From the NCBI GenBank assembly GCA_036001325.1, contig DASYUK010000484.1, positions 1 to 52,988 of the forward strand: a DNA stretch of 52,988 bases, written 5' to 3'. The translations under genes and the position numbers were made by a program. The notes beneath the pieces are model-generated. The model had not been told where the DNA came from. It was given only the letters and a program-made list of their open reading frames with translations, and searched no databases. This DNA is from Thermoanaerobaculia bacterium (GTDB lineage: Bacteria; Acidobacteriota; Thermoanaerobaculia; Gp7-AA8). This document shows, piece after piece, positions 5,324 to 28,864 of this stretch. The stretch's first letter is position 1; the number at the start of each line of letters is the position of its first letter.

Positions 5324-6892
5324 CTAGATGCTGATCGCCTGCGGACGCTCGGTCGCGCTGTAAACGATGTCGAAGATCATCCGCGACACGAAGAACGCTG
5401 TGAAGACGGATGCGCCAAGACCGATGAGCAGCGTCACGGCGAAGCCTTTGATCGGTCCCGTTCCGAACTGAAAGAGGAAGAGGGCCGCGATGATCGTCGT
5501 GAGGTGCGTGTCGATGACCGTGGCGAACGCGCGCGAGAAGCCGTTCTCGATCGCGGCGCGCACGGTCTTTCCTTCGCGCAGCTCTTCCCGGATGCGCTCG
5601 AACACGAGAACGTTCGAGTCGACGGCCATACCGAGAGTCAGGATGATGCCGGCGATACCCGGCAACGTGAGCGTGGCTTTGAAGTACGCCATCATGCCCA
5701 GAAGGATCACGAGGTTCAGCAACAGTGCCAGCACAGCGTTGACACCGGCGCCCTTGTAGTAGAGCAGGACCGCGGCGATCAGCAGAACGAAGCCGATGAT
5801 CGACGCCATCACTCCCTGGCGGATGGAGTCGCGGCCGAGCGACGGTCCGACGGTTCTCTCTTCGAGAGTCGTCAACGACGCCGGGAGCGAGCCGCTGCGG
5901 AGAATCAGCGCGAGGTCGCTCGCTTGCTGATTCGTGAAGCTGCCTTCGATCACGCCCTGATCGGTGATCTGGCTGTTGATTCGAGGAGCGGAAACGACGC
6001 GGTTGTCGAGGACGATGGCCAGCCGGCGGCCGACGTTCGCTCCGGTGAGGGCACCGAACTTCGGCGCGCCGTCGGGAGTGAGCGAAAAGCCGATGACCGG
6101 CTCGCCGAGGCGCCCCTTCTGCACGCGCGCGGTCTTGAGATCGCGGCCGCTGACCGGAACGGTCTTGTTCACGGCGTAGTACTCGACGCCGGCGGCGCGG
6201 CCCAACTCATCCTCGCGAGTTCCGGCAAGGATGTCGACGTCGTTCTTCAAATTCGCCGGAAGCGAGCTCTCGATGGTCTTCGGATCGGCAGCGGGATTGC
6301 CTTCGACCATCCGGAACTGGAGTTGCGCCGTGGTCTTGATGATGTCTTTCACGCGCGCCGGATCGTCGACGCCGGGAAGCTGGATGACGATGCGATCCTC
6401 GCCCTGTGGAGCGATGATCGGCTCGGTCACACCGAGGGCGTTGACGCGATTGTCGATCGTCTCGACGGCCTGACTGACGGTGTCATGCCGGAGCTGTGTG
6501 ATCGCCGCGGGCTTCATCCTGAAGACGAGGGAGCCGTCGGCAGCGTGCGACTGATCGAACGTGACCAGATAGTCCTTGCCGATGCGTTCGTATTCCGCCG
6601 TGGAGACGCCCGCCGGCGGCACGGCGACGAATGACGAATCGCTCGTGCGGCGCACAGTCGGAGTCGGCAGCTTGTTGTTCACCGCTTGCGTCTTGAGCAT
6701 CTCCATCGCCTGATCGACTTCCAGACGCATGGCGTCACCGATGTTCACGCGCATGACCAGATGCGTCCCGCCCTTGAGGTCGAGACCGCGCCGGATCGGC
6801 TCGGGATTGTTCTTGGTCGGGATCAGGCCGGCCGAAAACAGCACCAGCACGGCGACGATGAGCCCAACTTTCCAAATGACACTTCTGTTCAA
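5324..6892 (-). CDS. secD: Protein translocase subunit SecD
   Basis: GLDLKGG, RVNALGVTEP, IQLPG, LAIVLD, LRSGSLP, LTLPGIAG, GMAVDSNVLVFERIREE and IKGFAVTL motifs; TTG start with GGAGG upstream. Confidence 0.97.
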   Translation of the reverse strand: MNRSVIWKVGLIVAVLVLFSAGLIPTKNNPEPIRRGLDLKGGTHLVMRVNIGDAMRLEVDQAMEMLKTQAVNNKLPTPTVRRTSDSSFVAVPPAGVSTAEYERIGKDYLVTFDQSHAADGSLVFRMKPAAITQLRHDTVSQAVETIDNRVNALGVTEPIIAPQGEDRIVIQLPGVDDPARVKDIIKTTAQLQFRMVEGNPAADPKTIESSLPANLKNDVDILAGTREDELGRAAGVEYYAVNKTVPVSGRDLKTARVQKGRLGEPVIGFSLTPDGAPKFGALTGANVGRRLAIVLDNRVVSAPRINSQITDQGVIEGSFTNQQASDLALILRSGSLPASLTTLEERTVGPSLGRDSIRQGVMASIIGFVLLIAAVLLYYKGAGVNAVLALLLNLVILLGMMAYFKATLTLPGIAGIILTLGMAVDSNVLVFERIREELREGKTVRAAIENGFSRAFATVIDTHLTTIIAALFLFQFGTGPIKGFAVTLLIGLGASVFTAFFVSRMIFDIVYSATERPQAISI

Positions 6893-6920: not shown

Positions 6921-8359
<1,439 letters not shown>

Positions 8360-9040
8360 CTACTGAATCTTCATCTGCTCGACCTTCACGTTGGCCGGAA
8401 GGCTGAGCGTGAATCGCCCCTGCTCGATCGGCTGATTCACCTTGATTTTCGTGAACTCATAGCGGGTGATGTCGCCGTCGCTTTCGACATACTCGAATTT
8501 CGAAGTGAGGTAGGTGTCCTTCTCGATCCAAATCCGGATGTGCTTCACGCGCCTGGCCACGGCCCGGCTTTTCGGACTCAGATCGAGGACCCAATAGGGA
8601 CTCGTCGACGTGTCGGTGAAGGTGAAATCGAAGTAGCGCGACAGTTCATCGATCGCGCCGGAGGCGCCCATGTATTTGAAGATGCGATCCTCGAAGCGCT
8701 TGACGTCGATGCGCTCGACCTTGTTCAGGTCGGGGTAATACGTCGTCAGCACACCGCCGGAGATGAGCATCTGCACGCGCTTCGGAGCGTCGTACGACCA
8801 GAGCACATTGTTCGGCTTCGAAAACACGAACGTCCCCGTGGAAACCTCAGGCTTCGACAGGAGCGCCAATTCTTTCCCCTGCTTGAAGTCGGCCTGCAGT
8901 GTTTGCGTCTTCCGCTGCTGTTGCTGAACCCTCTTGATGACCGACTCGAGCGTGACCGGCGCCGGTTTGCTCGCCGCCGACAGAGACGTGGCGATCGCTG
9001 TAGCGCAAACCGCGGCCGTGATGAACTTCACTTTGGACAT
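8360..9040 (-). CDS. lolA: Outer-membrane lipoprotein carrier protein LolA family
   Basis: Signal peptide (MSKVKFITAAVCATAIATSLSA), LQADFKQ, GTFVFSKPNNVLWSY and a C-terminal FTLSLP pattern. Start ATG 9040. Confidence 0.8.
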   Translation of the reverse strand: MSKVKFITAAVCATAIATSLSAASKPAPVTLESVIKRVQQQQRKTQTLQADFKQGKELALLSKPEVSTGTFVFSKPNNVLWSYDAPKRVQMLISGGVLTTYYPDLNKVERIDVKRFEDRIFKYMGASGAIDELSRYFDFTFTDTSTSPYWVLDLSPKSRAVARRVKHIRIWIEKDTYLTSKFEYVESDGDITRYEFTKIKVNQPIEQGRFTLSLPANVKVEQMKIQ

Positions 9041-9117
9041 GGCTTGGGAAGAACGCCCTCCCTCAGGGCGAAATTTCGAGGAGAGCGTGTATACTCCAGA
9101 TAAAGCCGAGGTTAGCA

Positions 9118-9951
9118 ATGAAAAGAAACGTGATGGGCGGTGTGGCGGCGCTCCTGCTGACGGGGCATGCGGCCTTTGCGGCGGTTCAATACGAATACTT
9201 CCAGACGAGCCGGTCTGAACTTCAGGATGAGAAGTCGTCGGACTTCAATGCGCGCGCCGTGATCGATGGCTCGCGCTCGCGCGTCGAGTTCATCTCCGGT
9301 AATACCTATCCGCCGGGAACCTATGTCATCTCGACCGACGCCGCTCGCAAACTGTTGTTCGTCGATCCGACGCAGAAGACCTACACCGAAGTGAACAGCC
9401 TCGCCATCGCCAGCGCGGTCGGCACGAGCAACATCACCATCGGCGACCTCTTGTCGTCGGTGACGAAGCTGGACGATGCGAAAGTCATCGCCGGGATCCC
9501 CACGGATCACTACCGGCTGACGATGACCTACAACATCACGATCAATTTCCGGAACATGGCGCTCAAACAGTCGGTGCGGACGACGATCGACAAGTGGACG
9601 ACCGTGCGCTTTGGCGACGCGGCCGAGGCGGCGTTCTCGAACACCATCCAGACCGGCAACGCCAAGGTCGATGAATTAATCGCTGCAGAGACGACGAAGA
9701 TCAGAGGATTCCCGCTTCGGCAGACCATTCAAGTGGTGACCATCAACGAGACGGGACCGCAACCGGTCGGGACGAAACTGGCGCTCCCCGCTTCGCGCAC
9801 GATGAGCCGCGAGATGACCGTCACGGCCATCGGCGAAGCCAAAGCAGATGATTCGCTGTTCAGGATTCCCGCCGAGTATCGCAAGATCGATTTCGCCGAT
9901 CAGATCAACAAATCGCAGACCCAGGTCTTGACACCACCGTCGAATCAATGA
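9118..9951 (+). CDS. Exported protein, DUF4412-like
   Basis: Signal peptide; DPTQKTY and KVIAGIPTDHY patterns and a C-terminal LFRIPAEY resemble DUF4412 proteins; coupled to the next gene by an ATGA overlap. Confidence 0.6.
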   Translation: MKRNVMGGVAALLLTGHAAFAAVQYEYFQTSRSELQDEKSSDFNARAVIDGSRSRVEFISGNTYPPGTYVISTDAARKLLFVDPTQKTYTEVNSLAIASAVGTSNITIGDLLSSVTKLDDAKVIAGIPTDHYRLTMTYNITINFRNMALKQSVRTTIDKWTTVRFGDAAEAAFSNTIQTGNAKVDELIAAETTKIRGFPLRQTIQVVTINETGPQPVGTKLALPASRTMSREMTVTAIGEAKADDSLFRIPAEYRKIDFADQINKSQTQVLTPPSNQ

Positions 9952-11284: not shown

Positions 11285-13156
11285 ATGAACAAAGTCATCG
11301 TCCGGGCTCCGGTGCGCGCCGATCTCGCCGGAGGCACTCTCGACCTTTGGCCGCTGTATCTCTTCCATCCCGGCTCGCGGACGGTCAACGTCGCGGTCTC
11401 ACACTACGCGGAGTGCGAGGTTGCCGAGACCGGCGACGGCGCGATCGAGATTCACCTCACCGATCAGCAGTATCGCCAACGATACGAATCGATGCAGGAG
11501 CTTTCGGCGGATCCGAAAGCAGCGTTGATCTATCGGCTCGTCGAGCACTTCCATCTCAACGGGCTCTCCATCACCACTCGCACCGACGCTCCGCGCGGCT
11601 CGGGCCTCGGCGGTTCATCGGCGCTGAGCATCACGCTGGTGCGCGCTCTGTCGGAGCTGGCCGGCGCACCGCTGGACGGAGAAGATCTCATCTTTCTCGT
11701 CCGCGACCTCGAGACCCGGCTCCTCGGCGTCCCCGCTGGAATTCAGGATTATTACCCGCCGGTCTTCGGCGGTCTGGCCTCGCTGCGACTCGAGCCGGGC
11801 GCGCCGAAGCGACATCCGATCGGCATCCCGATTACCGATCTCGCGGCGCACATGCTGCTGCATTACAGCGGCGTCGCCCATTTCTCAGGCACGAACAACT
11901 GGGAGATGTACAAGCGCCAGATCGAAGGCAAGAAGAAAGTGCAGCGCGGATTCGACCGGATCGCGCAGACGTCGATCGACATGGAGAAGGCGCTCGAAGC
12001 GGGCGACTTCAAGAAGGCCGGAAAAGCGCTGGCGAAGGAGTGGGAACAGCGCAAAGTGCTGATCGCCGGCATCTCGACGCCGGAGATCGATGCGGCGATC
12101 GATGTCGCTCTCACCGCGGGGGCGTGGGGCGGGAAGGTGTGCGGGGCGGGGGGCGGGGGATGCATCGTCTTTCTCTTTCCGCCCGAGCAGCGTGACGCGA
12201 TCGTGCAGGCGCTCGGCACTGTCCCGGGTCGCGTTCTCGATGCAGTGCCGGTTGCGCACGGCCTCACGATCCAGCGTGGCGATGAAGCGCAAGCTGCCAT
12301 CACAACCGCTCGCGGGCGCGCGCCCGTCGCGCATCGCGATGGAGAGGTCGAGCAGCTCTATGTTCACAGCGATCGCGGCGAGTACAAGCCGTTCATCCTC
12401 GCTGAGGCTGTGGTGACGCACGTGGATGGCCGGAGTGGCACGCATCACAGCGTCGTCCGATCGTACGCGGCGCCAATCGAAGACATCGACGGCCGCGTGT
12501 TGTGGCATCTGGCGCGCGTCGTCGATCCGAATCGACTCGATCTGCGCACGGTACGCGATCCGGTGCGGCGAGTGGCCTCGAGCATCCGCGCGGAGACAGT
12601 CGTGCAGAGCGCGATGGAGTCGGAGGAATCGTTCCGTACGTTCCTCGAAGAGAACGAGCGGTTGCGCATCTTTCACGATCCGGCGTTCGCGTTGTACTCC
12701 GAGCCCGGCGAATCACGCGAGGCATTTCTGGAGCGTTGTACGGAGGAGGCGAATCGGCGCCTGGCCGTGGAGACCGAGCGGCTGGAGAGCACGTTCCGAC
12801 GTCGCATCGATCAGCTCCGCGAAAAGTCCGAGCGCGAACAGCGCGAGCGCGTCAAGGGCGACGAGACTCCGGCCGATCGCGCCGCGCAGGATGTGAACGT
12901 CGCCTGGGGTCAGGCGCTCTACAACATCACCAGCGGACGGCCGGCGGCCGTCGCGGAAGCGACACAATCCGCGCGCGAGGTCGACTATCTCGAGAACATC
13001 GCCCAGGTGCAGCGCGCCTGGGACAAGGAGCTGCAGGCGATCCGTGACGATCTGATGGCGAAGGCGAGTGAAGTCGAAGAGATTTCCATCGTGCCGTCGC
13101 CGAAGAACATCGAGATCACGCGATACCTCGTGCTGTGGGCGGGCGCGCAACCGTAG
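11285..13156 (+). CDS. GHMP kinase (heptose-7-phosphate kinase/HddA-like) with ~290 aa C-terminal extension
   Basis: RAPVRADLAGG, PRGSGLGGSS, GIQDYY and GGKVCGAGGGG motifs in the first ~330 aa; the reading frame stays open into an unrelated helical domain. Confidence 0.88.
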   Translation: MNKVIVRAPVRADLAGGTLDLWPLYLFHPGSRTVNVAVSHYAECEVAETGDGAIEIHLTDQQYRQRYESMQELSADPKAALIYRLVEHFHLNGLSITTRTDAPRGSGLGGSSALSITLVRALSELAGAPLDGEDLIFLVRDLETRLLGVPAGIQDYYPPVFGGLASLRLEPGAPKRHPIGIPITDLAAHMLLHYSGVAHFSGTNNWEMYKRQIEGKKKVQRGFDRIAQTSIDMEKALEAGDFKKAGKALAKEWEQRKVLIAGISTPEIDAAIDVALTAGAWGGKVCGAGGGGCIVFLFPPEQRDAIVQALGTVPGRVLDAVPVAHGLTIQRGDEAQAAITTARGRAPVAHRDGEVEQLYVHSDRGEYKPFILAEAVVTHVDGRSGTHHSVVRSYAAPIEDIDGRVLWHLARVVDPNRLDLRTVRDPVRRVASSIRAETVVQSAMESEESFRTFLEENERLRIFHDPAFALYSEPGESREAFLERCTEEANRRLAVETERLESTFRRRIDQLREKSEREQRERVKGDETPADRAAQDVNVAWGQALYNITSGRPAAVAEATQSAREVDYLENIAQVQRAWDKELQAIRDDLMAKASEVEEISIVPSPKNIEITRYLVLWAGAQP

Positions 13157-13621: not shown

Positions 13622-13700
13622 TAACAGGTCGTGGGTCGTAGGTGCCGTGGGCCTCAGCGCCATAAGGCCCCCGGTACCTACGACCTACGACCTACGACCC
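13622..13700. repeat. Palindromic intergenic repeat with tandem heptamer arms (family A)
   Basis: GGTCGTG/GGTCGTA left arm and ACCTACG x3 right arm. Shares 18-nt and 26-nt exact blocks with 28772-28864. Confidence 0.88.
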
Positions 13701-13703
13701 AAC

Positions 13704-15041
13704 ATGGCACGTATCAAAATCATTGGCGCCGGCTTGGCCGGATCCGAGTGCGCATTCCAACTCGCGCGCAATGGCCACGCGGTCGATCTGTTCGAGATGC
13801 GGCCGGTGAAGATGACTCCGGCACATCACACATCGAACCTCGCGGAGCTGGTGTGTTCGAACTCGTTCCGCTCATCCGCAATCACCAACGCCGTCGGACT
13901 GCTGAAACACGAGATGTCGCTCCTCGGATCGCTCGTCATCCGCTGCGCGGAAGAAGCGCGCGTTCCGGCGGGTGATGCGTTTGCGGTCGACCGTGAACGC
14001 TTTGCCGCGACCGTCACACAGACGATCGCGACCCAAAGTGGCATCACGACTCGCCGCGAAGAAGTGGCCTCACTCGATCGCGACGGCTACGACTTCATCG
14101 TCGTGGCCACGGGACCGCTGACATCACAGCCGCTGTTCGAGACGATCAACGACTTTCTCGGGCGCGACGGTCTGTATTTCTACGACGCCATCGCGCCCAT
14201 TCTCGCCGCCGACTCGCTGGACATGTCGAAGCTGTACTGGAAGTCGCGCTACGGAAAAGGCTCCGGCACCGACTATCTGAACGCTCCGATGAATCGCGAG
14301 CAATACGAGGCGTTCGTCAACGCATTGCTCGGCGCCGAGCTCTATCCGTTACACGACTTCGAGAACGCTGTGCACTTCGAAGGTTGCCTGCCGATCGAAG
14401 AAATCGCGAGCCGCGGCATCGATACGCTGCGCTTCGGTCCGATGAAACCGGTCGGCCTCGAGCATCCCGTGAGCGGCGAACGTCCCTACGCCGTCGTGCA
14501 GCTTCGCAAGGAAGATCTCTCCGACGAGTACTTGAACATCGTCGGCTTCCAGACGAAGATGAAAGTTCCCGAGCAAAAGCGCGTCATTCAGACGATCCCC
14601 GGTCTCGAGAACTGCACCTTTACGCGCTTTGGATCGATGCACCGCAACACCTTCATCAACGGACCGCGTCATCTCACGCCGGCATTTCAGACGAAGCGCG
14701 ACCCGCACATTTTCTTCGCCGGTCAGGTGACCGGTGTCGAAGGCTACGTCGAGTCGGCAGCCGTCGGTCTTCTCGTGGCGCGGTACATCGATGAGATGGC
14801 CAGCGGTGAATCGCCCAAGCCGCTGCCTTATCACACCGCGCTTGGCGCCCTCGGTCGTCATGTCGCCGAGTCCTCGCCCGATCGTTATCAACCATCCAAC
14901 GTCACCTGGGCGCTGATCGAAGACGCGATCGGAAAAGTAAAAAAGAGCGAGAAACGCGACAAGCAGGTCAAGCTGGCGATCGAGACCGTTGGCGCGCTCA
15001 GCGGCGCGATCCCACGACAGCACGCAACTGCCGCATCTTGA
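13704..15041 (+). CDS. trmFO: Methylenetetrahydrofolate--tRNA-(uracil-5-)-methyltransferase TrmFO
   Basis: IIGAGLAGSE, AELVCSNSF, FYDAIAP, FEGCLPIE, FGPMKPVGL, VQLRKE, FGSMHRNTF and AGQVTGVEGYVES motifs. Start ATG 13704. Confidence 0.96.
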   Translation: MARIKIIGAGLAGSECAFQLARNGHAVDLFEMRPVKMTPAHHTSNLAELVCSNSFRSSAITNAVGLLKHEMSLLGSLVIRCAEEARVPAGDAFAVDRERFAATVTQTIATQSGITTRREEVASLDRDGYDFIVVATGPLTSQPLFETINDFLGRDGLYFYDAIAPILAADSLDMSKLYWKSRYGKGSGTDYLNAPMNREQYEAFVNALLGAELYPLHDFENAVHFEGCLPIEEIASRGIDTLRFGPMKPVGLEHPVSGERPYAVVQLRKEDLSDEYLNIVGFQTKMKVPEQKRVIQTIPGLENCTFTRFGSMHRNTFINGPRHLTPAFQTKRDPHIFFAGQVTGVEGYVESAAVGLLVARYIDEMASGESPKPLPYHTALGALGRHVAESSPDRYQPSNVTWALIEDAIGKVKKSEKRDKQVKLAIETVGALSGAIPRQHATAAS

Positions 15042-16833
15042 GGTCGAGCTCTTCCGGCGTGATGTTCGCGTACTTCGGAGGCAAAAGTCGCCGGCTGGAG
15101 GCTTCGAAGACGGCGAGGAGCTCCATGTACTCGAGCAACTCGACGTCGCGGCTCGGGAAGTAATCGGCGGCGGCGCGGATGAACCGATCGGCGCTGACGC
15201 TCGCAGCTTCGTCGCGCGCGGCGTCATCCAGAGCCATCAACACGACCGCTTCGACGTCGGCGTTGCTGTAGCCGACCAGCTTCTGTGAAAACGCTTCGCG
15301 AATCGATGTGAAGTCGACGTCGGTGCTGATCTTGTTCTTTCTGACCAGCGCTCGGGCGACGTTCTCCACCTCTTGCGGAGTCTGCGAGTAGAGGAACGGG
15401 ATCTTCCGGTCGAGGCGTCCGGCGCGCTTGAGGTCGACGTCAAGCTTGTCGGGCCGGTTCGTCATCACGAGGAACAGAATCCGTCCGCGGTTGGACGTGT
15501 CGGACATGAACTCCTTGATCCGCGCGATCACTCGCGACGACGTCCCGCCGTCGCCCTCCGCATCGGTGTTTCCGAACGCGCGATCGCCTTCGTCGATGAT
15601 GACCACGACCTGACCGATGGCGCGGATCACATTGAGAATCTTCTCGAGATTCCCTTCCGTCGCTCCCACCCACTTCGATCGGAAGTTCTTGAGCTTGATT
15701 GTCGTCAGACCGCATTCGCGCGCGAACGCCTCGGCGACAAACGTCTTCCCGGTCCCCATCGGACCGGTGAAGAGAATGCCCATGGGGACGCGCGCGCTCT
15801 GACCGTCGCGGATGCTCTTCGCGATGACCATGAGGTCCTTCTTGACCTCGTCCATCCCACCGACGACGTCGAAGCCGTGCTGGGGCTCGACAAACTCGAT
15901 CAGGCCGAAGCATTCGCGCTCGAGAATCTCGCGCTTCCGTCGCGCGATGAGCGTGTCGATCTCCTGCCGAGCGCGCTCGGAGCGATCGATGTTCTCTGGA
16001 ATCGGACGCGCACCGGGCGCGAGCAACTTCGTGATCTCATCCTCATTCAATCCTGCCGTCAGCGCGGCCAACTTCTTCGCGCGTTGCGCGGCGTCGGGTC
16101 CGGCGAGCAGCCGCGCAATGAACGACTCCCGTTCGCGCGATTCCTCCTCCGTGGCTGGCGGCGGCGTGAGGATGGAGATGATCTGAATGGCCTTGAGTCC
16201 CGCGGTCACTTCCGCGTATCGCTCCGTCTCCTGATCGGAAAGCCGTTTGTCCGCAAGATGTGCGGCTGCTTTGCGCGCGTCCGCGTCGGGCATCGGTATC
16301 TCCACCACGGCCACTTTCGGATTCGAGACGAGCTTTCCGGCGAGCTCGGTCAGGTTCTCGGAGATGAGGACGACGACGTTGTCGCTGCGCTCGATCTCCG
16401 GCAGGAACGACCAGCGATGCAGTGTCACGATCGCGGCGCGATCAGCCTCACTCTGAAAATTCGGATCACCTGCGGGGGCGATCGCCTCCGCGTACTCCAG
16501 GACCACGGCCGTCCTCGTTCCGCCGATGAGCATCCGCTCGATTGCGCCGAGGACGCGCGGCTTCTCGGTGGAAAGGAGAAGCTCGTCGAGATTGCTCACG
16601 CCGTTGTTGCGTTTCGCGAAGCGCACACCGGCCGCGACGTTGTAGATAGCCACGGTGTCCTTGGTCTCCTTGAGGAGAACATGGGCCAGAAAATCGCTGA
16701 GCGTCACCGTCTGATTGCCGCTGATCACCGAGTCATACACGTTGCCATGCAAGACAAAGATCGATGCTTCGCCGCGCAGATAGCGTCTCCGCAGATCCTC
16801 GGCCCAGACCGGAAGGATTCGCGGCTCACTCAC
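14998..16833 (-). CDS. Classical-clade AAA+ ATPase (degenerate N-terminal AAA-like domain plus one intact AAA domain)
   Basis: Walker A GPMGTGKT, pore loop SKWVG, Walker B IIDEGD and [21 protein letters not shown]. The N-terminal ~200 aa has no Walker A. Confidence 0.9.
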
Positions 16834-17666
16834 GCTCTCACCTCCAGCGCGTTGAGGATTCTCTCCGTATCTCGCGCGGTCTCCTGAATCGATTGCACGC
16901 CGTCCAGCAGATCGTCGAGCTGACCCGACAGCTCACCGGGCGACTGCATCGTCACGATCTGATCGGAGATGAGCTGGAACGAGTTCTCGATGAGATCGAG
17001 CTGCCCACGAGCGACGCTGAGGTAGTTGCGGATGTCGCGCAACTTCTCGAGCCGCTTCTCGATCACCGCCACATTCTTCTTGGCGATCTCGCGCTCCTGC
17101 GCAGGCGTCCGATCCGACGCGGCTTTGGCCTGCCAACGGGCGCGGTCCTTCTCCAGTGTGTTGAAATCGACGCTCTTCAGGTATTGGTCGTATCGGTTGC
17201 ACGTCAGAGCCATCTCCAGGAAGGAATCGACGAGTTGCCGCGTCTTCACCAGCTCGCTGCGCAGGAGGTCGCCTGTGAAGGAGGGATTCTGGGCGGCCAG
17301 ACGATTGATGTTCTGTTCACGCATGACGAGAGTGCTCACGCGCCGTTGTTCCTCGACCGGCATGTCTTTCATCCGCTCCGACCGTTCCAGATCTTCGAGA
17401 GCGACCCGCATCTTCTCGAACTTAGGGTCCCATACAGTGCGGCGGAGGAATTTCGAGTCGGGAGCGTGCAGGAGCCAGATGGCTTCGCCGCCGAGTGCGA
17501 GCATCGCCGGAATCGGATTCACAGTCAGCACCGACGCGGCGATCCCGCCGAGAAGCAACGACAGGTTGTACGGATTCGCGAAGGCCATTTTCAGATACGG
17601 CCGCTGCCCGACACCGTCGCCGATGTCCCTCGGACCGAGCGGGCGCGGCTTTTCGGAGATACCCAC
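16830..17666 (-). CDS. Hypothetical membrane-anchored coiled-coil protein
   Basis: Hydrophobic hairpin (YNLSLLLGGIAASVLTVNPIPAMLALGG), then long helical E/K/R-rich segments; coupled to the AAA gene by a GTGA overlap. Confidence 0.8.
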   Translation of the reverse strand: MGISEKPRPLGPRDIGDGVGQRPYLKMAFANPYNLSLLLGGIAASVLTVNPIPAMLALGGEAIWLLHAPDSKFLRRTVWDPKFEKMRVALEDLERSERMKDMPVEEQRRVSTLVMREQNINRLAAQNPSFTGDLLRSELVKTRQLVDSFLEMALTCNRYDQYLKSVDFNTLEKDRARWQAKAASDRTPAQEREIAKKNVAVIEKRLEKLRDIRNYLSVARGQLDLIENSFQLISDQIVTMQSPGELSGQLDDLLDGVQSIQETARDTERILNALEVRA

Positions 17667-17675
17667 GGTGAAATT

Positions 17676-18548
17676 CTACGCAGCGGGAGCGTAGATGAGG
17701 TCGAGAAGCTTTTTCTCGACCGAACGGAATTCGTTCGACGACTTCAGGGCAATATCACGCGAGGTGAAGAACGGTATGTCGACGCGATGCAGTATCCGCG
17801 TCGGCCGTGGCGACAGAACATAGACCGTGTCACCGAGATAGACGGCCTCCGACACATCGTGCGTTACGAAGAGGATCGTGTTGTCCTCCGAGCGTGAGAT
17901 GTCGAGAAGGAGGCTCTGCATCCCCCAGCGCGTCTGCGGATCCAACGCCCCGAACGGCTCGTCCATCAGCACCAGCTTGGGCCCGTTGATCAACGTCCGC
18001 GCGATCGCGACGCGCTGCTTCATCCCGCCGGAAAGATCCTTTGGATAGCGATCGGCGAAGTCGCCCAGGCCGACCTGCTGGAGGTACTTCTCCGATTTCT
18101 TTTCGCGTTCGCTCCGCGTCACGCCACGCAGCTTCAGACCATATTCGACATTCTGCCGCACCGTCAGCCAGGCGAAGGAGGTGTATGCCTGAAAGACCAT
18201 GCCGCGTTCGCGGCTGACGCCGGTCACGGGCTCATCCTCGACAAGAATCTCGCCGCGCGTCGGCGGCAGCAGCCCGGCCACCGATTTCAGGATGGTCGAT
18301 TTGCCGCAGCCCGACGGCCCGAGGAACACCACGATCTCACCGCAATCGGGCTTGTCCGCGATGTCCAGCGTGATCTCGCGCACCGCCTCGGTGCGGTTAC
18401 CGCGCCGGTCGATGTACGTCACACCGAGATCGTTGATGCGCAGCTTCGGCGTCTGCTCGGTCGGTTTGGCGACATAGCTCGGCTGTGGTCCTTTCGGTTG
18501 TTCCGCGTCGATGGCGATCGTGCCGGGCTCGCCGGTCTTATTCGTCAT
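17676..18548 (-). CDS. ABC transporter ATP-binding protein, NitT/TauT family
   Basis: GPSGCGKST, MVFQ, LSGGMKQR, LMDEPFGALD and FVTHDVSEA motifs. Confidence 0.95.
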   Translation of the reverse strand: MTNKTGEPGTIAIDAEQPKGPQPSYVAKPTEQTPKLRINDLGVTYIDRRGNRTEAVREITLDIADKPDCGEIVVFLGPSGCGKSTILKSVAGLLPPTRGEILVEDEPVTGVSRERGMVFQAYTSFAWLTVRQNVEYGLKLRGVTRSEREKKSEKYLQQVGLGDFADRYPKDLSGGMKQRVAIARTLINGPKLVLMDEPFGALDPQTRWGMQSLLLDISRSEDNTILFVTHDVSEAVYLGDTVYVLSPRPTRILHRVDIPFFTSRDIALKSSNEFRSVEKKLLDLIYAPAA

Positions 18549-19354
18549 ATCTCGGCCTCACGCCAGCGGAAGAAGATTTTCGACAGCGTGCGGATGATCT
18601 GATCGGTGAGCAAACCGATACCACCGATGACGATGAGTCCAGCGAACGACCACGACGCCTTCTGATGCGTGCGCGCCAACTCGACCATGTACCCGAGGCC
18701 GTGCTCAGGGTTCACTGCCTCGGCGAGGATCACGTAAGTCCACGAGATCGCGTTCATAACGCGGAACGAGTCGAAAATCTCCGGCAGCGCCGCCGGCAGG
18801 AGAACGGTTCGGATGACCTGCCATTTTGAAGCTCCGAGCGTCAGCGCCGTCTGCACCAGCTCCTCCGGAACCACCCGGATCGCCGAGACGACGACCGGCA
18901 GCAGATAGACGAAGACGCCGAGAAATAGGAAGGCGATCTTCTGCTTCTCGTAGATGCCGAACCAGAGGATGAGCAGCGGGATGAATGCGGAGATCGGCAT
19001 GTAGCGCAGCGGCGCCATGATCGGATCGAAAATGTGATGAACGGGCGTGAAGGCTCCCATGATGATCCCGAGCGGCAGCGCCAGCGCGCTTGCCAGCAGG
19101 AAAGCGAGCACGATACGACGCGTGGAAACGATGATCGCGTCCATCAGGTCGTACTGAATGAAAAGCTGGAGCGTTCCGCGGATCGTCTCGGTCGGCGACG
19201 GAAGAAAGTCGGGCGGAGCAAAACCGCCGTACGTCAACACGCACCAGATCACGAGGACGAGCACGGGCATGACGAACGACAGCACGAACGCTGTGCTGCG
19301 CGGCACCGGCTGCCGGATCGACCACAGCGACGCCGTTCTCCCCTGTTGGGCCAT
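18545..19354 (-). CDS. ABC transporter permease, NitT/TauT family
   Basis: Multiple TM helices, FLPSP, PLRYMP and the EAA-loop region ALTLGASKWQVIRTVLLPAALP. Confidence 0.93.
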   Translation of the reverse strand: MAQQGRTASLWSIRQPVPRSTAFVLSFVMPVLVLVIWCVLTYGGFAPPDFLPSPTETIRGTLQLFIQYDLMDAIIVSTRRIVLAFLLASALALPLGIIMGAFTPVHHIFDPIMAPLRYMPISAFIPLLILWFGIYEKQKIAFLFLGVFVYLLPVVVSAIRVVPEELVQTALTLGASKWQVIRTVLLPAALPEIFDSFRVMNAISWTYVILAEAVNPEHGLGYMVELARTHQKASWSFAGLIVIGGIGLLTDQIIRTLSKIFFRWREAEI

Positions 19355-20988
19355 TAATGTGTCGTGAGCACGACCTTGATCTCGGTCCGGCGGTTCAGTT
19401 GACGGCCCGCTTCGGTGGCGTTATCGGCCACAGGGTTGGTCGAGCCGCGGCCGATGGTCTGGAACCGGTTGGCGTCGATGTTCGGAAAAGTCTGCACGAT
19501 GTAGTTCTTCACTGCCAGCGCGCGCCGCTCCGACAGCACCATGTTCCGTTGAGGAGTGCCGATCGCGTCGGTGTTTCCTTCGACTCGCAGATACGTGTTG
19601 CCGAACGATGTCATCGTGTCACCGAGGGCATCGAGGACGAAGAACGAGCCGGGCATGATCGAATCGCTTCCTGGCGTGAAGTGAATCTCGATCTGCTTGT
19701 TGATGATGGCGCGGTCGGATTTGGAAGGCGTCTTCGCCGCGAGCTTCGGCTCTTCGACTTTCTGCCCCGGGTACTGCGCAGCGAGCGAGGAGAGGAACCG
19801 CGTGTCCGCCCAATCCTTCGCGTCGACCGAGCGGGTCACGAGCCCTTTCTTCCGCCAGATCACGAAGGCCGTGTCGAAGAGCGTCTCGTAGTGCGCCTTT
19901 CCGCCGGTGAGTCCGTAGAACTGCGCGTTGTCGGCGTACGGGGTCAGTTTCAGACCGGAGAGCATGCCCGACACTGTGTCACTGTCGAGTTTCAGCGCTT
20001 TGCCGACGATCGCATACGAGCTGGCCGGATCCTTCTTCATCATTTCGATGCCCTGGAACCAGCCGTGGATGAAATTGCGGATCGTACCGGGCGCGCGATC
20101 GATCACGTCCTGCCGCGCGCACAGCGTGTCGGCGATGATGTTGGTCGCCGCGGTCGTTGAGATCAGCACGTGTGCTTCATCTCCTCGGGCCGTCACGGCG
20201 CCGGAAAGATCAGGCTCCCAGGTGACCGCCGCGTCGACCTGACGTGCTTTGAACATGGCCGCGGCCGCGGGCGCGTCCTGCGTGAAGATGATGTTTTTTT
20301 CCACGCCGGCGCGATCCTCCGGCGAAAGGCCGGACTGCGCGAGGAGGTAGAGCAGGAGGAAATGTGACGGCGTGAACTGCGTGCAGGCGATCTTGTGCCC
20401 TTTCAGGTCCTCGATCGCTTTCATCGAAGCGAGCGACACGATGCCGTCGCCCCCCCGCGACCAGTCCTGCATGACGACCGACTTCGCGCGCTGATTCTGT
20501 TCGGCCAGCACCGAGGCTTCCCGCGCCCAGTTGTCGACCGTGTTCCACATGACGTCGACGTCGCCATTGCGGAACGCGGCCAGCTTTGCCGCCGGATCCT
20601 CGATCAGGACGAACTTCACGTCCATGCCGAGCTGTCTGCGGTAATTCGAGCCGGCGTTCGGCTCCAGACCGTTGTTGTAGACGATGCCGGGCGAGTGGCC
20701 AGCCCAGGTGTTGATAGCCACGACGAGCGGCCGATCGAGAGAGCCGCTGCCGCCGAGGTTCACAGGCTGTACGCCGTTGGCGCCAGCGTCGCGACTGGGA
20801 TCGGCCGGTGCGTTCTTGAGTGCCGAGAAGTCGCTCGATGAGACTTCGCTGGAGCCTTGCCTCGCTTGTTTCTCGCCGCCAACGGCCCACTTCCGTACGT
20901 CCGCCCCCTTGTAGTGATAAACGGCATAGCCGACGACGGCCAGTACGACGACAGTGATGAAGAATTTTGCGAATGGAGTCAACCGCAT
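19354..20988 (-). CDS. Membrane-anchored ABC substrate-binding protein (NMT1/SsuA-like) fused to an OmpA-like C-terminal domain
   Basis: N-terminal TM; binding-domain motifs DWSRGGDGIV and DAAVTWEP; C-terminal IHFTPGS...RVEGNTD...LSERRALAVKNY...NRRTEI OmpA signature. Confidence 0.88.
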   Translation of the reverse strand: MRLTPFAKFFITVVVLAVVGYAVYHYKGADVRKWAVGGEKQARQGSSEVSSSDFSALKNAPADPSRDAGANGVQPVNLGGSGSLDRPLVVAINTWAGHSPGIVYNNGLEPNAGSNYRRQLGMDVKFVLIEDPAAKLAAFRNGDVDVMWNTVDNWAREASVLAEQNQRAKSVVMQDWSRGGDGIVSLASMKAIEDLKGHKIACTQFTPSHFLLLYLLAQSGLSPEDRAGVEKNIIFTQDAPAAAAMFKARQVDAAVTWEPDLSGAVTARGDEAHVLISTTAATNIIADTLCARQDVIDRAPGTIRNFIHGWFQGIEMMKKDPASSYAIVGKALKLDSDTVSGMLSGLKLTPYADNAQFYGLTGGKAHYETLFDTAFVIWRKKGLVTRSVDAKDWADTRFLSSLAAQYPGQKVEEPKLAAKTPSKSDRAIINKQIEIHFTPGSDSIMPGSFFVLDALGDTMTSFGNTYLRVEGNTDAIGTPQRNMVLSERRALAVKNYIVQTFPNIDANRFQTIGRGSTNPVADNATEAGRQLNRRTEIKVVLTTH

Positions 20989-21025
20989 TGGACACCTCTC
21001 TCGTCGCCCGGAGATGCGGAGACGG

Positions 21026-21082
21026 CGAAGGATCTCGACAGCGATCTAACGCCGAAGAGATCCTTCGCTCCGCTCAGGACGA
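21026..21082. repeat. Palindromic intergenic element (family C)
   Basis: Inverted repeat CGAAGGATCTC (21026-21036) / GAGATCCTTCG (21057-21067), followed by CTCCGCTCAGGACGAC. Confidence 0.65.
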
Positions 21083-21088
21083 CGTTGC

Positions 21089-21793
21089 TCACATGGTTTT
21101 TTGTCCCTGCGAAGCCTGCTGCGCCGCCTTGCGCGCCTTGAGATTGGCCAGTTCCTGCTTCGCCTGAACGTCGCCGGTCTGATTTCGCAGAGCCGCCAGC
21201 CGCGAGTCGAGCGACGAGTCCGACAGCTCCTTGGTCAGATTGGCCTCGGCGATCGTGTTCTTGATGTGGTTCCGGACCGTGTCGAGCGCTCTGACCTCAT
21301 CGTCGACCGAGAGCCCATCGAGTTGCTCCTGGATTCTCAATCGCGCCTGTGCCGACTGCATCTTGGCCATCATCACGTCGCGCTCGCCCTTCAGCTTCCG
21401 GATCTCCGACTGTACGGACACGAGCGATTGCTTCGCCGAGTTGGCATCCGAATGCGCCGACTCCATGTCCGTCTTCAGTTCGGCCAGATCAGCGGTGAGC
21501 TGATTCTTCTTCTGGATCAGGACGACCGCCAGATCGTCCTGATTGGTCTCCACAGCCGTGTTCAGCTCCCCGTCCGTTTGCGCCAGGTCGGCCGTTGTCC
21601 TTTTGTAACGCTCGTCGAGATCTTCCCGGCGCCGGATGATCGCCGCCGTAGCGCTCTTGAGCTTCGCGTACTTGCCGACCATCGAGTTGATGGCGTTCTC
21701 GTAAGCGATCTCCGGATGCTCTTTCTCGATGTCGGCGATCCACAGCGAGAGAAAACCCCTCCAGAGATTGCCGAGACGATTGATCAGACCCAT
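21089..21793 (-). CDS. pspA: PspA/IM30 (ESCRT-III-like) family protein
   Basis: Amphipathic N-terminal helix ([18 protein letters not shown]), [13 protein letters not shown], long coiled coils, and the C-terminal LDSRLAAL...ELANLKA pattern; strong RBS AGGAGG. Confidence 0.88.
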
Positions 21794-21804
21794 GGACCCC
21801 TCCT

Positions 21805-22461
21805 TCAGGAATGGTCACTGCTCTTCGGCTCATGAAGCTTGGGCGACTCACGGACGACCTTCGCCACTGCTTCCTGACCGAAGAATTCGAGCACTTTCTG
21901 CACTTCGAGCTTGCGTGAGTTGCAACTCTTCACGACGGCCTGCTGCTCCGTCACACGATCTTGCATGATCTGTCGAAGTTTTACGATTTCGTCCTCATAT
22001 TGTTTGATGCGCTGGTCGGCCTCGTCGGCCACTTTCTGTGTGTCGTCGGCGCCGGAGCGGATGTATGCCTCGAGTGCCTGAATCTGCTGAGCTCCCGCTT
22101 CGATGATGTTGTCGATCGGCACTCCGAAGGCTTTCAAGGACGCGAAGACGATCTGCTTCTTGACGTTGGCGTCCGTGTCGCCCGACAACGAATTCAGCAG
22201 GTCGAGCGTGCGCGTGACGCGCTCCCGCTGCTCGGCCCCAATTCCGGCGGCGTCGAAAACCTTTTCGAAATCGACGGTACCACCGGGAGCCGGCGGAGGC
22301 GCGCTGCTGAAGACGTTGAGGGGCTCGGTTGGAGCGCGGCGCCCACCGCCCCGCCGCTGCGTCTCTGGCGGTTGAGCGCCGGACGGAGTGGTGTCAGATG
22401 CAGGATCCTGCACGACGAACCAACCCATGACTGTTGATCCCCAACCCTTCTTGTCGGCCAT
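21805..22461 (-). CDS. Hypothetical protein (first gene of the PspA operon)
   Basis: N-terminal [14 protein letters not shown], a Pro/Gly-rich linker, a helical domain and a C-terminal coiled coil; 11 bp upstream of pspA. Confidence 0.8.
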
Positions 22462-22475
22462 CAGGCGAAACGAAA

Positions 22476-22484
22476 ATCATAGCA
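22476..22484 (-). promoter_or_regulatory. Candidate extended -10 promoter of the PspA operon
   Basis: TG-C-TATGAT on the minus strand, ending 15 nt before the ATG at 22461. Confidence 0.45.
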
Positions 22485-22568
22485 GAGGGCCGTACGACGG
22501 CCTTCGCCGGCGCATTGAAGCGCACCGCTACACCACTCTCCGGCGTTACCATTTCATCACTGAGTCGC

Positions 22569-23633
22569 GTGGCACTGAAACCGGGCGAGAAACCGACCAT
22601 CACCATCCTGTACGACGCGCAGGAAGAGAAGGAGCGCGAAGGTGCGCTCGCGCGCGGCGAGAAGTTTCCGACGCTCGTCTCACAGCAGATCGAAGAGGTG
22701 CTCACGAAGCGCGGCTACACCATCAAAAAGCTCGCCGCGAATCCGCCGATCAAGAAACTCGTCCGCCAGCTCGAAGACGACAACTCCGACCTCATCTTCA
22801 ACATCTGCGAATCCCTCGGCGGCGACGGTGAGGAAGAACGCCGCATCGCCTCGATGCTCGAGCTGCTCGACAAGCGCTTCACCGGCAACGCATCGCTGGG
22901 GATCACGCTGGCCGGCGACAAGTCGCTGGCGAAAAAACTCTTCGAGTTCCATGAAGTCTCTTCGCCCGACTTCACCATCGTTTCCCCCGGACATACCGAG
23001 GGGACGCAGAATCTCGACAAGTTCCCGCTGATCGTGAAGCCGATCGCCACCGACGCATCGATCGGCATCAACAAGAAATCGGTCGTCGGCACCGTTCATG
23101 AGTTGATGGATCAGATCTTCGCCGTTCATCAGGAGTTCAAGACTGCCGCCCTCGTCGAGGAGTACATCGATGGGCGCGAAATCTACATGGCACTCCTCGG
23201 CAATCCGCCGACGATGCTCACGCCGATCGAGTGGGATCTTTCGAAGCTTCCCGACGGCATGCCGAAAATCGCCGGCACGGAAGCGAAATGGGAAGAGTGG
23301 AAAAACCCGGAGCTGAAGGCGGCGAAGGAGTTCGTCCCTGAGGACATCGTCGCCAATGCGGCCATGATGTCCAAACTTCAGGCCGCTGCGACGGGCGCCT
23401 GGAAAGCATTACAGATCAGAGATTACGCCCGAATCGACATCCGCCTCCGCGCCGACGGCACGCCGTATGTACTGGAAGTCAATCCGAACCCATGGCTCGA
23501 CAAGTCGGCGGAATTCGCGATGGCGGCCCGAAAGTCGAAGCCGGAGATGTCGTACGGCGACTTGATCGAGAAGATCATCGAGATCGCCATGAGCCGGCCG
23601 ATGCGCGACCGGGTTTCGGCCAACGGCCGATAA
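22569..23633 (+). CDS. ATP-grasp protein, D-Ala-D-Ala ligase-like
   Basis: LIFNICE, FTGN, DKSLAK, PLIVKPIATDASIGI, LVEEYIDGRE, YARIDIR and LEVNPNP motifs. It lacks the canonical Ddl N-terminal GGxSxEH. Start placed at GTG 22569. Confidence 0.85.
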   Translation: MALKPGEKPTITILYDAQEEKEREGALARGEKFPTLVSQQIEEVLTKRGYTIKKLAANPPIKKLVRQLEDDNSDLIFNICESLGGDGEEERRIASMLELLDKRFTGNASLGITLAGDKSLAKKLFEFHEVSSPDFTIVSPGHTEGTQNLDKFPLIVKPIATDASIGINKKSVVGTVHELMDQIFAVHQEFKTAALVEEYIDGREIYMALLGNPPTMLTPIEWDLSKLPDGMPKIAGTEAKWEEWKNPELKAAKEFVPEDIVANAAMMSKLQAAATGAWKALQIRDYARIDIRLRADGTPYVLEVNPNPWLDKSAEFAMAARKSKPEMSYGDLIEKIIEIAMSRPMRDRVSANGR

Positions 23634-24649
23634 GCTGGCACGAGGAGCGCGAGACCCTCCTCCGTTCCCGCATCAGCGATCTCAATCTCAGGATCGAAGG
23701 AAGCGAGCTCGAGCCGCTCGTCCATCGACTCTACGAAGAGCTCGAAGGCGCCGGACTCCAATTCAAGCCACCGATTTATCTCAGCGACGAGTGGGGTTGC
23801 CCGGAGGGCGTACCGATCATCGGCGTGCCGTTCTATCTCGCGCATCCGAAGCTCGCGCGTCTGGAGCAGGAGATCGCCGAGAACCTGGAGACGGCCGAAG
23901 ACTCGATGATGTATCTGCGCCACGAAGCGGGCCACGCGTTCAACTATGCGTACGTGCTCTACGAAGACGAAGAGTGGCACCGCATCTTCGGTCCGTACTC
24001 GCGCCCGTACATGGAGAACTACAAGCCGAATCCATTCTCACGCGAGTTCGTGCGCCACATCGCCGGATGGTATGCGCAGAAGCATCCCGATGAAGATTTC
24101 GCGGAGACGTTCGCGGTGTGGCTCGACCCGAGCTCGAATTGGCGACAGGAGTACGCTGGCAGCCCGGCGCTGACGAAGCTCGAATATGTCGATCGGCTGG
24201 CACGCAGCATCGGCAAGCAGCCACCGAAAGTGCCACCGCGCGAGCGCGACGCGCCGGTCGAGGAGCTGCGCTACACACTCAGCGATTACTACGCGCATCG
24301 CGATGATGCGACACGGCTGCAGATTCCGCGCTGGTTCGATGGCGATCTGAAGCAGCTCTTCGAGACAGAGAAGGGTGACGGTCGCTCGCCGGCGGAGCCG
24401 CTGCTGCGGGAGAAGCGGCTCGACTTCATCGGTGAGGTCACGTACTGGACCGGCGTGCCCATGCGTGTCGTGCGCTCGCTCGTCGATCACCTGCTCGAGC
24501 GCATCGCCGCGCTGGAGTTGCAGGTGATCGAAAAGGAGCGCGACCGATACGTCATCTCATTCAGCGCGATGGTGACGACGCTGGCGACGAACTATCTGCG
24601 CCACGAGCAGTTCGTTCCGGAGAGTCGCGTTCGCAGAGAAGATCGGTGA
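23630..24649 (+). CDS. Putative zinc-binding metallopeptidase (Peptidase_Mx-like)
   Basis: HExxH in YLRHEAGHAFNY, plus SDEWGCP, PFYLAHP and AQKHPDEDFAETFAVW. The start is uncertain: ATA at 23630, or ATG at 23492 deep inside the upstream gene. Confidence 0.85.
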   Translation: MSWHEERETLLRSRISDLNLRIEGSELEPLVHRLYEELEGAGLQFKPPIYLSDEWGCPEGVPIIGVPFYLAHPKLARLEQEIAENLETAEDSMMYLRHEAGHAFNYAYVLYEDEEWHRIFGPYSRPYMENYKPNPFSREFVRHIAGWYAQKHPDEDFAETFAVWLDPSSNWRQEYAGSPALTKLEYVDRLARSIGKQPPKVPPRERDAPVEELRYTLSDYYAHRDDATRLQIPRWFDGDLKQLFETEKGDGRSPAEPLLREKRLDFIGEVTYWTGVPMRVVRSLVDHLLERIAALELQVIEKERDRYVISFSAMVTTLATNYLRHEQFVPESRVRREDR

Positions 24650-28776: not shown

Positions 28777-28864
28777 GGTCGTGGGTCGTGGGTCGTCGGT
28801 ACCGGGGGCCTCGTCGCCTGAGGCGCTGCAGCCCCCGGTACCTACGACCTACGACCCACGACCC
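28772..28864. repeat. Palindromic intergenic repeat with tandem heptamer arms (family A)
   Basis: GGTCGTG repeats on the left and ACCTACG/ACCCACG repeats on the right; inner perfect inverted repeat GGTACCGGGGGC/GCCCCCGGTACC. Confidence 0.88.

Follow-up and report, generated by a model that had tools for sequence, protein, structure and literature searches.

Does a bacterial genome encode, next to a protein belonging to the ESCRT-III superfamily, a dedicated ATPase that turns over its polymers? This question was raised by an operon at 14998-22461 (minus strand) on contig DASYUK010000484.1, of which all 52,988 nucleotides were analyzed (hereafter the window). The host is a Thermoanaerobaculia bacterium; the closest database proteins came from metagenome-assembled genomes (MAGs) of Thermoanaerobaculia, phylum Acidobacteriota. 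Seven tightly packed genes were found, in the order X, PspA, SBP::OmpA (a solute-binding protein, SBP, fused to an OmpA domain), permease, ATP-binding cassette (ABC) ATPase, TMcc (a putative transmembrane coiled-coil protein) and AAA ATPase. We tentatively read them, with somewhat less than even confidence, as a machine for maintaining the envelope, built of modules and transcribed from a single promoter ahead of X, in which the AAA ATPase would turn over PspA recruited by TMcc and to which an importer arm is attached. The features of the operon are the following, all on the minus strand.

22476..22484, minus strand: extended -10 promoter-like motif, TGnTATGAT (comparative motif search)
21805..22461, minus strand: X, 218 aa (no Pfam or NCBIfam match)
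21089..21793, minus strand: PspA/IM30, 234 aa, bacterial ESCRT-III superfamily (PF04012)
20989..21088, minus strand: pspA-SBP spacer, 100 nt, with a long stem-loop (inverted repeat and RNA folding)
19354..20988, minus strand: SBP::OmpA, envelope protein of 544 aa (NMT1/Phosphonate-bd/SsuA-like and OmpA)
18545..19354, minus strand: ABC importer permease, TauC/SsuC/SaoP-like (BPD_transp_1)
17676..18548, minus strand: ABC importer ATPase, TauB/SaoA-like (PF00005)
16830..17666, minus strand: TMcc, 278 aa, two-helix membrane protein with a helical domain (hydropathy and AlphaFold2, AF2; no family match)
14998..16833, minus strand: AAA ATPase, 611 aa (PF00004 at residues 353-480)

The earlier note on this DNA had suspected that surveys might already have recorded neighborhoods of PspA and AAA, and this was indeed so. 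The same gene order was catalogued by Ravi et al. 2024 (mSystems 9:e00847-23, PMC11237479; Table S3, Text S2.2) as X - PspA - PBPB+OmpA - permease - ABC ATPase - TM+Snf7 - (inactive AAA + AAA), with OGG56892.1 from Candidatus Handelsmanbacteria as example. ATP-dependent remodeling comparable to Snf7/Vps4 and tied to solute transport was inferred there (PMC11237479). Comparative genomics had thus already described the system and put forward the same hypothesis, and it is not new; the novelty implied by the earlier note was not borne out. No functional study of the operon was found in the literature, and it is not mentioned by Popp et al. 2022.

Conservation and variants of the operon

The seven same-strand open reading frames (ORFs) of the earlier note were all present on the minus strand with the coordinates it had given. 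Junctions computed from these coordinates (+11, +100, -1, -4, +9 and -4 nt, in gene order) matched its description of gaps of about -4 to 11 bp and a single gap of 100 bp. Overlaps of 1 nt between the SBP and permease genes, of 4 nt between the permease and ABC ATPase genes and of 4 nt between the TMcc gene and the AAA gene that follows it were observed. Pfam and NCBIfam together assigned five of the seven proteins to families, X and TMcc remaining without family.

Conservation was assessed on 80 loci from GTDB species representatives, which were fetched with TMcc as bait. All were labelled Acidobacteriota (Thermoanaerobaculia, Vicinamibacteria and Blastocatellia/Pyrinomonadaceae) except L069 (Pseudomonadota). 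All seven genes were found in order in 49 of the 59 evaluable Acidobacteriota loci (those with enough flank on both sides), and this across the three classes, at 65-85% identity. PspA and AAA were both present in 56 of the 59, and AAA directly followed TMcc in all 74 Acidobacteriota loci with enough downstream sequence. The genes flanking the operon in the window were common only to its two closest relatives, which defines the conserved unit as X to AAA. Because the order is kept in 49 loci while the flanks are not conserved, the seven-gene arrangement is far beyond chance; the earlier note had made its proposal depend on co-occurrence of the genes in other genomes, and they do co-occur. Outside the phylum, the full set recurred in L087; it recurred as well, at 38-73% identity and without detectable X, in L123, from a MAG labelled Pseudomonadota.

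Several variants were encountered. Seven of the 59 loci displayed X-PspA-TMcc-AAA without the transporter, four of them in compact form; L046, L056, L060 and L073 exemplify this transporter-less order. L018 and L019 carried a diverged and inverted SBP::OmpA-permease-ABC set, and L008 consisted of TMcc-AAA only. The remaining variants were seen outside Acidobacteriota. A TMcc clade about 40% identical to the TMcc of the window displayed X-SBP::OmpA-permease-ABC-TMcc in all seven loci with enough flank; PspA was absent from it, AAA followed TMcc in none of 20 loci and the next gene was convergent. L124 and L125 were bare PspA-TMcc dyads, and such dyads without the other modules argue for a direct relation between PspA and TMcc. 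In L121, X-TMcc was followed by a transporter and then by adjacent PspA and AAA. In Myxococcota relatives, TMcc adjoined OmpA-, LysM- or SBP-bearing proteins. The parts thus behave as separable modules, with a tendency for PspA and AAA to be present or absent jointly.

Some of these loci displayed further particularities. The ABC module was missing in one sub-lineage, of which L026 has a gene for a flavin amine oxidase of 911 aa (7000-9735, minus strand) on the opposite strand between pspA and TMcc, and L028, L029, L037 and L076 have a gap of similar size. In the clade devoid of PspA and AAA, a separate OmpA-family gene was often convergent just downstream of TMcc (L090, L095, L096, L100, L104, L106 and L110); that of L095 (8901-10082, minus strand) also encodes TSP_3 repeats and DUF4398. 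L007 and L048 are two TMcc loci of one acidobacterial MAG (JAFAOU01), which means that some genomes may hold the system in paralogous copies.

A single candidate promoter had been proposed at 22476-22484. It reads TGCTATGAT on the coding strand, an extended -10 motif that begins 23 nt before the ATG of X, and this position implies a very short predicted leader before X. A generic two-hexamer -35/-10 scan detected no full sigma-70 promoter, whereas the comparative motif search supported the proposal. Of 61 related loci, 34 had the motif TGn[T/C]Ann[A/T]T in the 60 nt preceding X, mostly at -18 to -27, where it forms a cluster; among random windows of 60 nt the share was 0.9%, and zero to two occurrences were found before each internal gene. 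This recurrence before X, and near absence before internal genes, supports the operon being a single transcription unit that would start just ahead of X.

The palindrome that the earlier note had seen in the 100-bp gap turned out to be a perfect 12-bp inverted repeat (21025-21036 and 21057-21068) with a loop of 20 nt, one of only four perfect stems of at least 11 bp in the 53-kb window. The others were located at 24483-24531 and 28798-28842 (12-bp stems with loops of 25 and 21 nt, respectively) and at 30870-30894 (11-bp stem, 3-nt loop). The spacer RNA was predicted to fold at -53.6 kcal/mol (z = -4.9), and none of 200 shuffled sequences folded as well. There was no U-tract after the stem-loop, and the spacer matched no Rfam family. 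A known RNA element was rejected on account of this lack of match and of the sequence not being conserved among orthologous spacers. Among orthologous pspA-SBP spacers, many hold long hairpins that are not homologous, and others span just 9-13 nt. The stem-loop is probably an intra-operon RNA stabilizer or attenuator that sets PspA dosage. Very long spacer hairpins, with a perfect stem of up to 31 bp, were observed in L009 (~6230-6419) and also in L004, L017, L022, L024, L025, L063 and L067. Their arms are made of short tandem units (e.g. AGTGCTGAGTACTGAGTGCTGAGTACTGAGT), and the arm sequence varies between genomes. These long hairpins resemble a family of palindromic intergenic elements for which the spacer would be a recurrent site.

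As the earlier note had stated, pspB, pspC, pspF and liaRS were absent, no such gene being found among the ten flanking genes tested. An ATP-grasp gene of the D-Ala-D-Ala-ligase type is divergent from the operon (22434-24649, plus strand) and is overlapped by an ORF with Peptidase_Mx (putative zinc metallopeptidase), a pair that is not kept beside the operon in other loci. Because the listed TTG start (22434) overlaps the X gene, the true start is probably further downstream. On the other side, a convergent trmFO-like gene (GIDA family, 13647-15041) shares 44 nt (14998-15041) with the AAA gene at its 3' end, so that a terminator would find no space between them; the same overlap was found in L038. 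Upstream of it (11285-13156, plus strand) is encoded a protein of 623 aa, whose GHMP-kinase domains are confined to the first ~320 residues and whose C-terminal 300 residues are charged, helical-looking and without family match; it adjoins trmFO in the closest relatives too (L027 and L038). The flanking ATP-grasp, Peptidase_Mx and TrmFO genes were considered as parts of the system and rejected, being conserved in only the two closest relatives.

Proteins encoded by the operon

The AAA protein matched PF00004 at 4e-26 (residues 353-480), and the claim that it is a classical AAA ATPase proved correct as to motifs: Walker A (GPMGTGKT, 357-364), a KWVG pore loop (387-390), Walker B (IIDEGD, ~412-417), sensor-1 (N459, in TN 458-459) and Arg fingers (RAGRLDR, 470-476, in segment 469-476) were all intact. 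A comparison of 67 orthologues revealed no variation in Walker A or around the pore loop, and the only changes in Walker B, in sensor-1 and in the Arg-finger segment were conservative substitutions. From its sequence the protein should hydrolyze ATP and thread a substrate. Its best relatives in the PDB were Cdc48/p97 D2 domains, but it does not qualify as a member of the Cdc48/p97 family, which has a double-psi-barrel N domain and two active AAA cassettes: the score against the model TIGR01243 was 91 bits for a cutoff of 803, and the N-terminal part is devoid of a P-loop. Neither the protein nor the flanking genes matched Sigma54_activat or HTH (helix-turn-helix), which sets it apart from the PspF type. 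Residues 1-316 form a highly conserved N-domain without P-loop (FVLHGNVYD at 26-34), which matched no PDB sequence. By eye, strand-like runs FVLHG, VVLEYAE and VVVLISEN occupy the positions of the Walker A, Walker B and sensor-1 strands.

PspA was confirmed as a bona fide PspA/IM30 protein: it matched PF04012 at 3e-19, with 70 bits for a gathering cutoff of 33.9, and did so over its full length, residues 3-222 being aligned with positions 2-218 of the 220 in the profile. Residues 2-19 form a predicted amphipathic N-terminal helix alpha0 with a helical hydrophobic moment of 0.49. Scores against E. coli-type equivalogs TIGR02977 and NF007974 were 49 bits (cutoff 243) and 31 bits (cutoff 336); as judged by profile scores, the protein is a member of the PspA family and not the enterobacterial equivalog.

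TMcc displayed two short hydrophobic helices (~32-48 and 52-70) followed by an all-helical C-terminal domain, which is probably cytoplasmic. Basic residues flank the hairpin and would place both termini in the cytoplasm. Although the family is only about 25% identical overall, N31, N34 and E61 within the hydrophobic helices were near-invariant; these intramembrane Asn and Glu residues could be a helix-helix contact or a site sensing charge or protons. The AF2 model was confident (pLDDT, predicted local distance difference test, 91.8; pTM, predicted template modeling score, 0.82). A word-indexed search gathered 2304 homologues, forming 575 clusters at 50% identity. A profile search against the PDB returned nothing, and hhalign gave no support for a relation to PspA.

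X did not match any entry of Pfam, NCBIfam or PADLOC, and all of the 2712 homologues gathered by profile search were named hypothetical. Behind an invariant N-terminal peptide (W7 G8 T10 V11 G13 W14 F15) come a disordered linker rich in Pro and Ala, a small domain of helices and a helix of ~79 residues. The AF2 model (pLDDT 72.6) displayed disorder at residues 1-60 and helices at 65-111 and 116-194; Foldseek found no match for it, and hhalign related it neither to PspA nor to TMcc. The hydrophobic moment of the N-terminal peptide was 0.16, unlike that of a classic amphipathic helix. The operon starts with X both in Acidobacteriota and in the clade devoid of PspA and AAA, and since the peptide is kept in that clade it is not simply a tag for AAA.

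The importer is complete as a type-I system of the NitT/TauT group, with a BPD_transp_1 permease, an ABC_tran ATPase (PF00005 at 5e-33) and a binding protein. The latter begins with a signal/anchor helix (6-24), followed by the NMT1/Phosphonate-bd/SsuA-like domain (118-398) and the OmpA domain (437-533). This last domain scored 59 bits against PF00691 (gathering cutoff 27.2) and displayed the motifs GNTD (471-474) and LSERRA (485-490). NCBIfam matches of SBP::OmpA to SsuA_fam and YiaD-type OmpA stayed below equivalog cutoffs, and the ABC ATPase scored 213 bits against the taurine ATPase model, below its cutoff of 357. Every score of the importer against taurine, sulfonate and SaoAP equivalogs being under cutoff, its ligand is not assignable from sequence.

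ATP-driven remodeling of PspA and its alternatives

The conserved unit, the bona fide PspA, the intact AAA cassette and the co-variation of PspA and AAA make it reasonable that AAA remodels PspA as Vps4 does its own polymers. In such a mechanism, the TMcc hairpin would sit in the inner membrane and its helical cytoplasmic domain would recruit PspA, a role played elsewhere by LiaI or PspB/C. AAA, translationally coupled to TMcc, would dock there through its P-loop-less N-domain and extract or turn over PspA subunits with ATP, as a functional analogue, not an orthologue, of Vps4/CdvC. The importer, with its exported and peptidoglycan-tied binding protein, might take up a small solute under the same stress or report the state of the wall, and X might go with it as its partner in the cytoplasm. 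PspA output is probably raised over that of the downstream proteins by the stem-loop that follows pspA. What stood of the overall reading proposed in the earlier note was the conserved transcription unit, the identity of PspA and AAA and their co-variation; the anti-phage role and the implied novelty did not stand.

A number of observations weigh against this reading. The "divergent Snf7" label that Ravi et al. gave to the membrane-anchored equivalent of TMcc (PMC11237479) was not reproduced by HMMER, AF2 with Foldseek or hhalign. None of 56 members of the TMcc family matched Snf7 or PspA_IM30 in Pfam at E<=1, and Foldseek found nothing for the TMcc model at E<0.1, with no ESCRT-III chain in the top 50. 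A small Snf7 alignment, built from PDB-verified CHMP4B, Shrub and Snf7 sequences, gave a probability of 2.6% with hhalign, in an insensitive test since the control pair PspA-Snf7 failed too (0.7%). AAA scored 58.9 bits against the CdvC model NF041006 (cutoff 650), less than against the CDC48, PAN and FtsH models, and neither MIT nor another relevant Pfam domain was found in residues 1-316 of the window protein or of eight orthologues. Judged from sequence, AAA may work like Vps4, yet it is not a member of the Vps4 family and stands nearest to Cdc48 D2. The "inactive AAA" label of its N-domain was likewise not reproduced with Pfam, PDB profile search or hhalign: eight orthologues had no AAA match in Pfam, the PDB profile search was empty and the N and C halves aligned with a probability of 0.2%. 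TMcc-AAA occurred without PspA within 10 kb upstream in L008 and L019, and L079 is probably a further case, checked over an upstream flank of 4.8 kb. PspA-TMcc without AAA and the ABC module without PspA and AAA both occur; as all modules are also found apart, their co-location may reflect shared regulation and not one machine. TMcc having been the bait for every locus, its presence everywhere is by construction and its hub position partly an ascertainment effect. Gene content and order, their conservation, the promoter and catalytic motifs and the co-variation of the modules are what the analysis shows; the contacts between the proteins, the substrate of AAA, the ligand and the physiological trigger are what we infer.

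The separability of the modules is also what would be expected from a co-regulated bundle, in which an ordinary NitT/TauT-type importer (e.g. of a sulfonate-, taurine- or nitrate-like solute) and an independent PspA stress module would share a promoter because both serve under one condition, such as osmotic or envelope stress, without touching each other. We consider this unlikely. X-ABC-TMcc, the transporter-less X-PspA-TMcc-AAA loci and the inverted ABC sets of L018 and L019 fit it, and so do transporter parts that are typical of type-I importers. It accounts poorly for the interleaving of the genes, the transporter being preceded by PspA and followed by AAA, in the 49 loci and at 38-73% identity outside the three classes. 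It is also at odds with TMcc and X remaining with the transporter even without PspA and AAA, and with the repeated adjacency of TMcc relatives to periplasmic proteins bearing OmpA or LysM, a sign that the link may be specific.

An equally improbable explanation is that AAA works on TMcc, X or other membrane proteins, by extraction or quality control of the Cdc48/Msp1/FtsH kind, while PspA only stabilizes the membrane. The 4-nt overlap of TMcc and AAA and their adjacency in all 74 loci, including L008, L019 and L079, in which PspA was not found nearby, agree with it; Cdc48/p97 D2 domains being the closest solved relatives points the same way, and the long disordered N-terminus of X would suit the initiation of threading. 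However, the N-terminal motif of X is kept in the AAA-less clade, the presence of PspA and AAA co-varies, and AAA-PspA dyads without TMcc were reported in Firmicutes (Ravi et al., Table S3, PMC11237479).

The fusion of SBP to an OmpA-like peptidoglycan-binding domain led us to consider the transporter mainly as a sensor, where SBP, placed between inner membrane and peptidoglycan, would signal a cue from the wall or periplasm through permease and TMcc to PspA and AAA, net import being small. The conserved polar residues inside the TMcc membrane hairpin, and distant TMcc relatives that adjoin SBP_bac_3+LysM or OmpA proteins without permease and ATPase (L084 and L086), are in line with this. Nonetheless, permease and ATPase display normal importer features and scores and the operon contains neither kinase nor transcription factor to receive the signal, and we hold the sensor role for quite improbable.

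The anti-phage or toxin-resistance role entertained in the earlier note is very hard to credit: the name "phage shock" was the only link besides weak generic matches of AAA to IetA/IteA and of the OmpA domain to ZorB, whereas PADLOC-DB 2.0 returned only generic P-loop, MotB and AAA similarities (none for X and TMcc), the viral contigs of IMG/VR yielded no relative, housekeeping genes make up the flanks, and conservation at 65-85% identity in three classes looks vertical and core-genome-like.

Turnover of TMcc-recruited PspA by AAA, if correct, may extend beyond this operon. Many bacteria may own an ATP-driven ESCRT-III machine made of PspA, TMcc and a dedicated classical AAA disassemblase of Vps4-independent origin, which in Acidobacteriota and some others would be wired via TMcc and X to a peptidoglycan-tethered importer; this wider proposal we regard as possible, though the less probable outcome. 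If true, it contradicts the statement of reviews from 2024-2025 that bacteria have no Vps4-like regulation of ESCRT-III (PMC7619361, PMC10936438), and the state of wall and periplasm would be coupled to membrane remodeling. Disassembly of bacterial PspA polymers is an open question, for which structural work proposes chaperones or PspF (PMC11746142), and this type of operon is a compact and widely conserved candidate for the recycling of PspA/Vipp1 that can be tested in vitro. Its variants point to minimal sets for reconstitution: PspA+TMcc, PspA+TMcc+AAA and X+TMcc+ABC.

Comparison with known systems

The operon resembles ESCRT-III with Vps4 and CdvB-CdvC in that a polymer-former is encoded with a classical AAA protein bearing a pore loop and with extra membrane-associated helical proteins. 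Archaeal ESCRT loci sometimes hold the solute-binding protein ProX (PMC10936438), a further likeness. Unlike Vps4 and CdvC, AAA has no MIT domain, its N-terminal 316 residues being a different domain. Also unlike ESCRT systems, no ESCRT-I/II genes are present and no MIM-type tail was demonstrated for PspA.

With E. coli PspF-PspABC are shared a PspA, an AAA+ protein, small membrane partners and the context of envelope stress. PspF, however, is an NtrC-type activator of sigma-54 with a helix-turn-helix domain and is inhibited by PspA, whereas AAA is classical and has neither domain; the operon moreover lacks pspB and pspC, and its promoter motif is sigma-70-like. The Bacillus LiaI-LiaH pair, like other pairs of a membrane anchor and PspA, is similar in that the gene of a small membrane protein adjoins that of a PspA homologue, as in the dyads L124 and L125. 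TMcc, however, is unrelated in sequence to LiaI, LiaF and PspC (no Pfam match), and the operon comes without a two-component system.

Permease, ATPase and SBP folds are those of TauABC, SsuABC and NitT importers, and the peptidoglycan-binding motif of the anchor is the canonical OmpA-like one of YiaD and Pal-type proteins. The fusion of the SBP to such a domain is a feature of the operon that is not known from characterized TauABC, SsuABC or NitT transporters.

The closest counterpart is the operon type of Ravi et al., since ORFs and domains of the window match the string of their Table S3 gene for gene. The host differs, the window belonging to Acidobacteriota, class Thermoanaerobaculia, and there is no discussion in their paper of X, of the promoter and spacer hairpin, or of the variants devoid of PspA and AAA or reduced to PspA-TMcc. 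As the idea was already published in 2024, the value of the present analysis lies in its confirmation in a further phylum, a clearer list of parts and a catalogue of variants.

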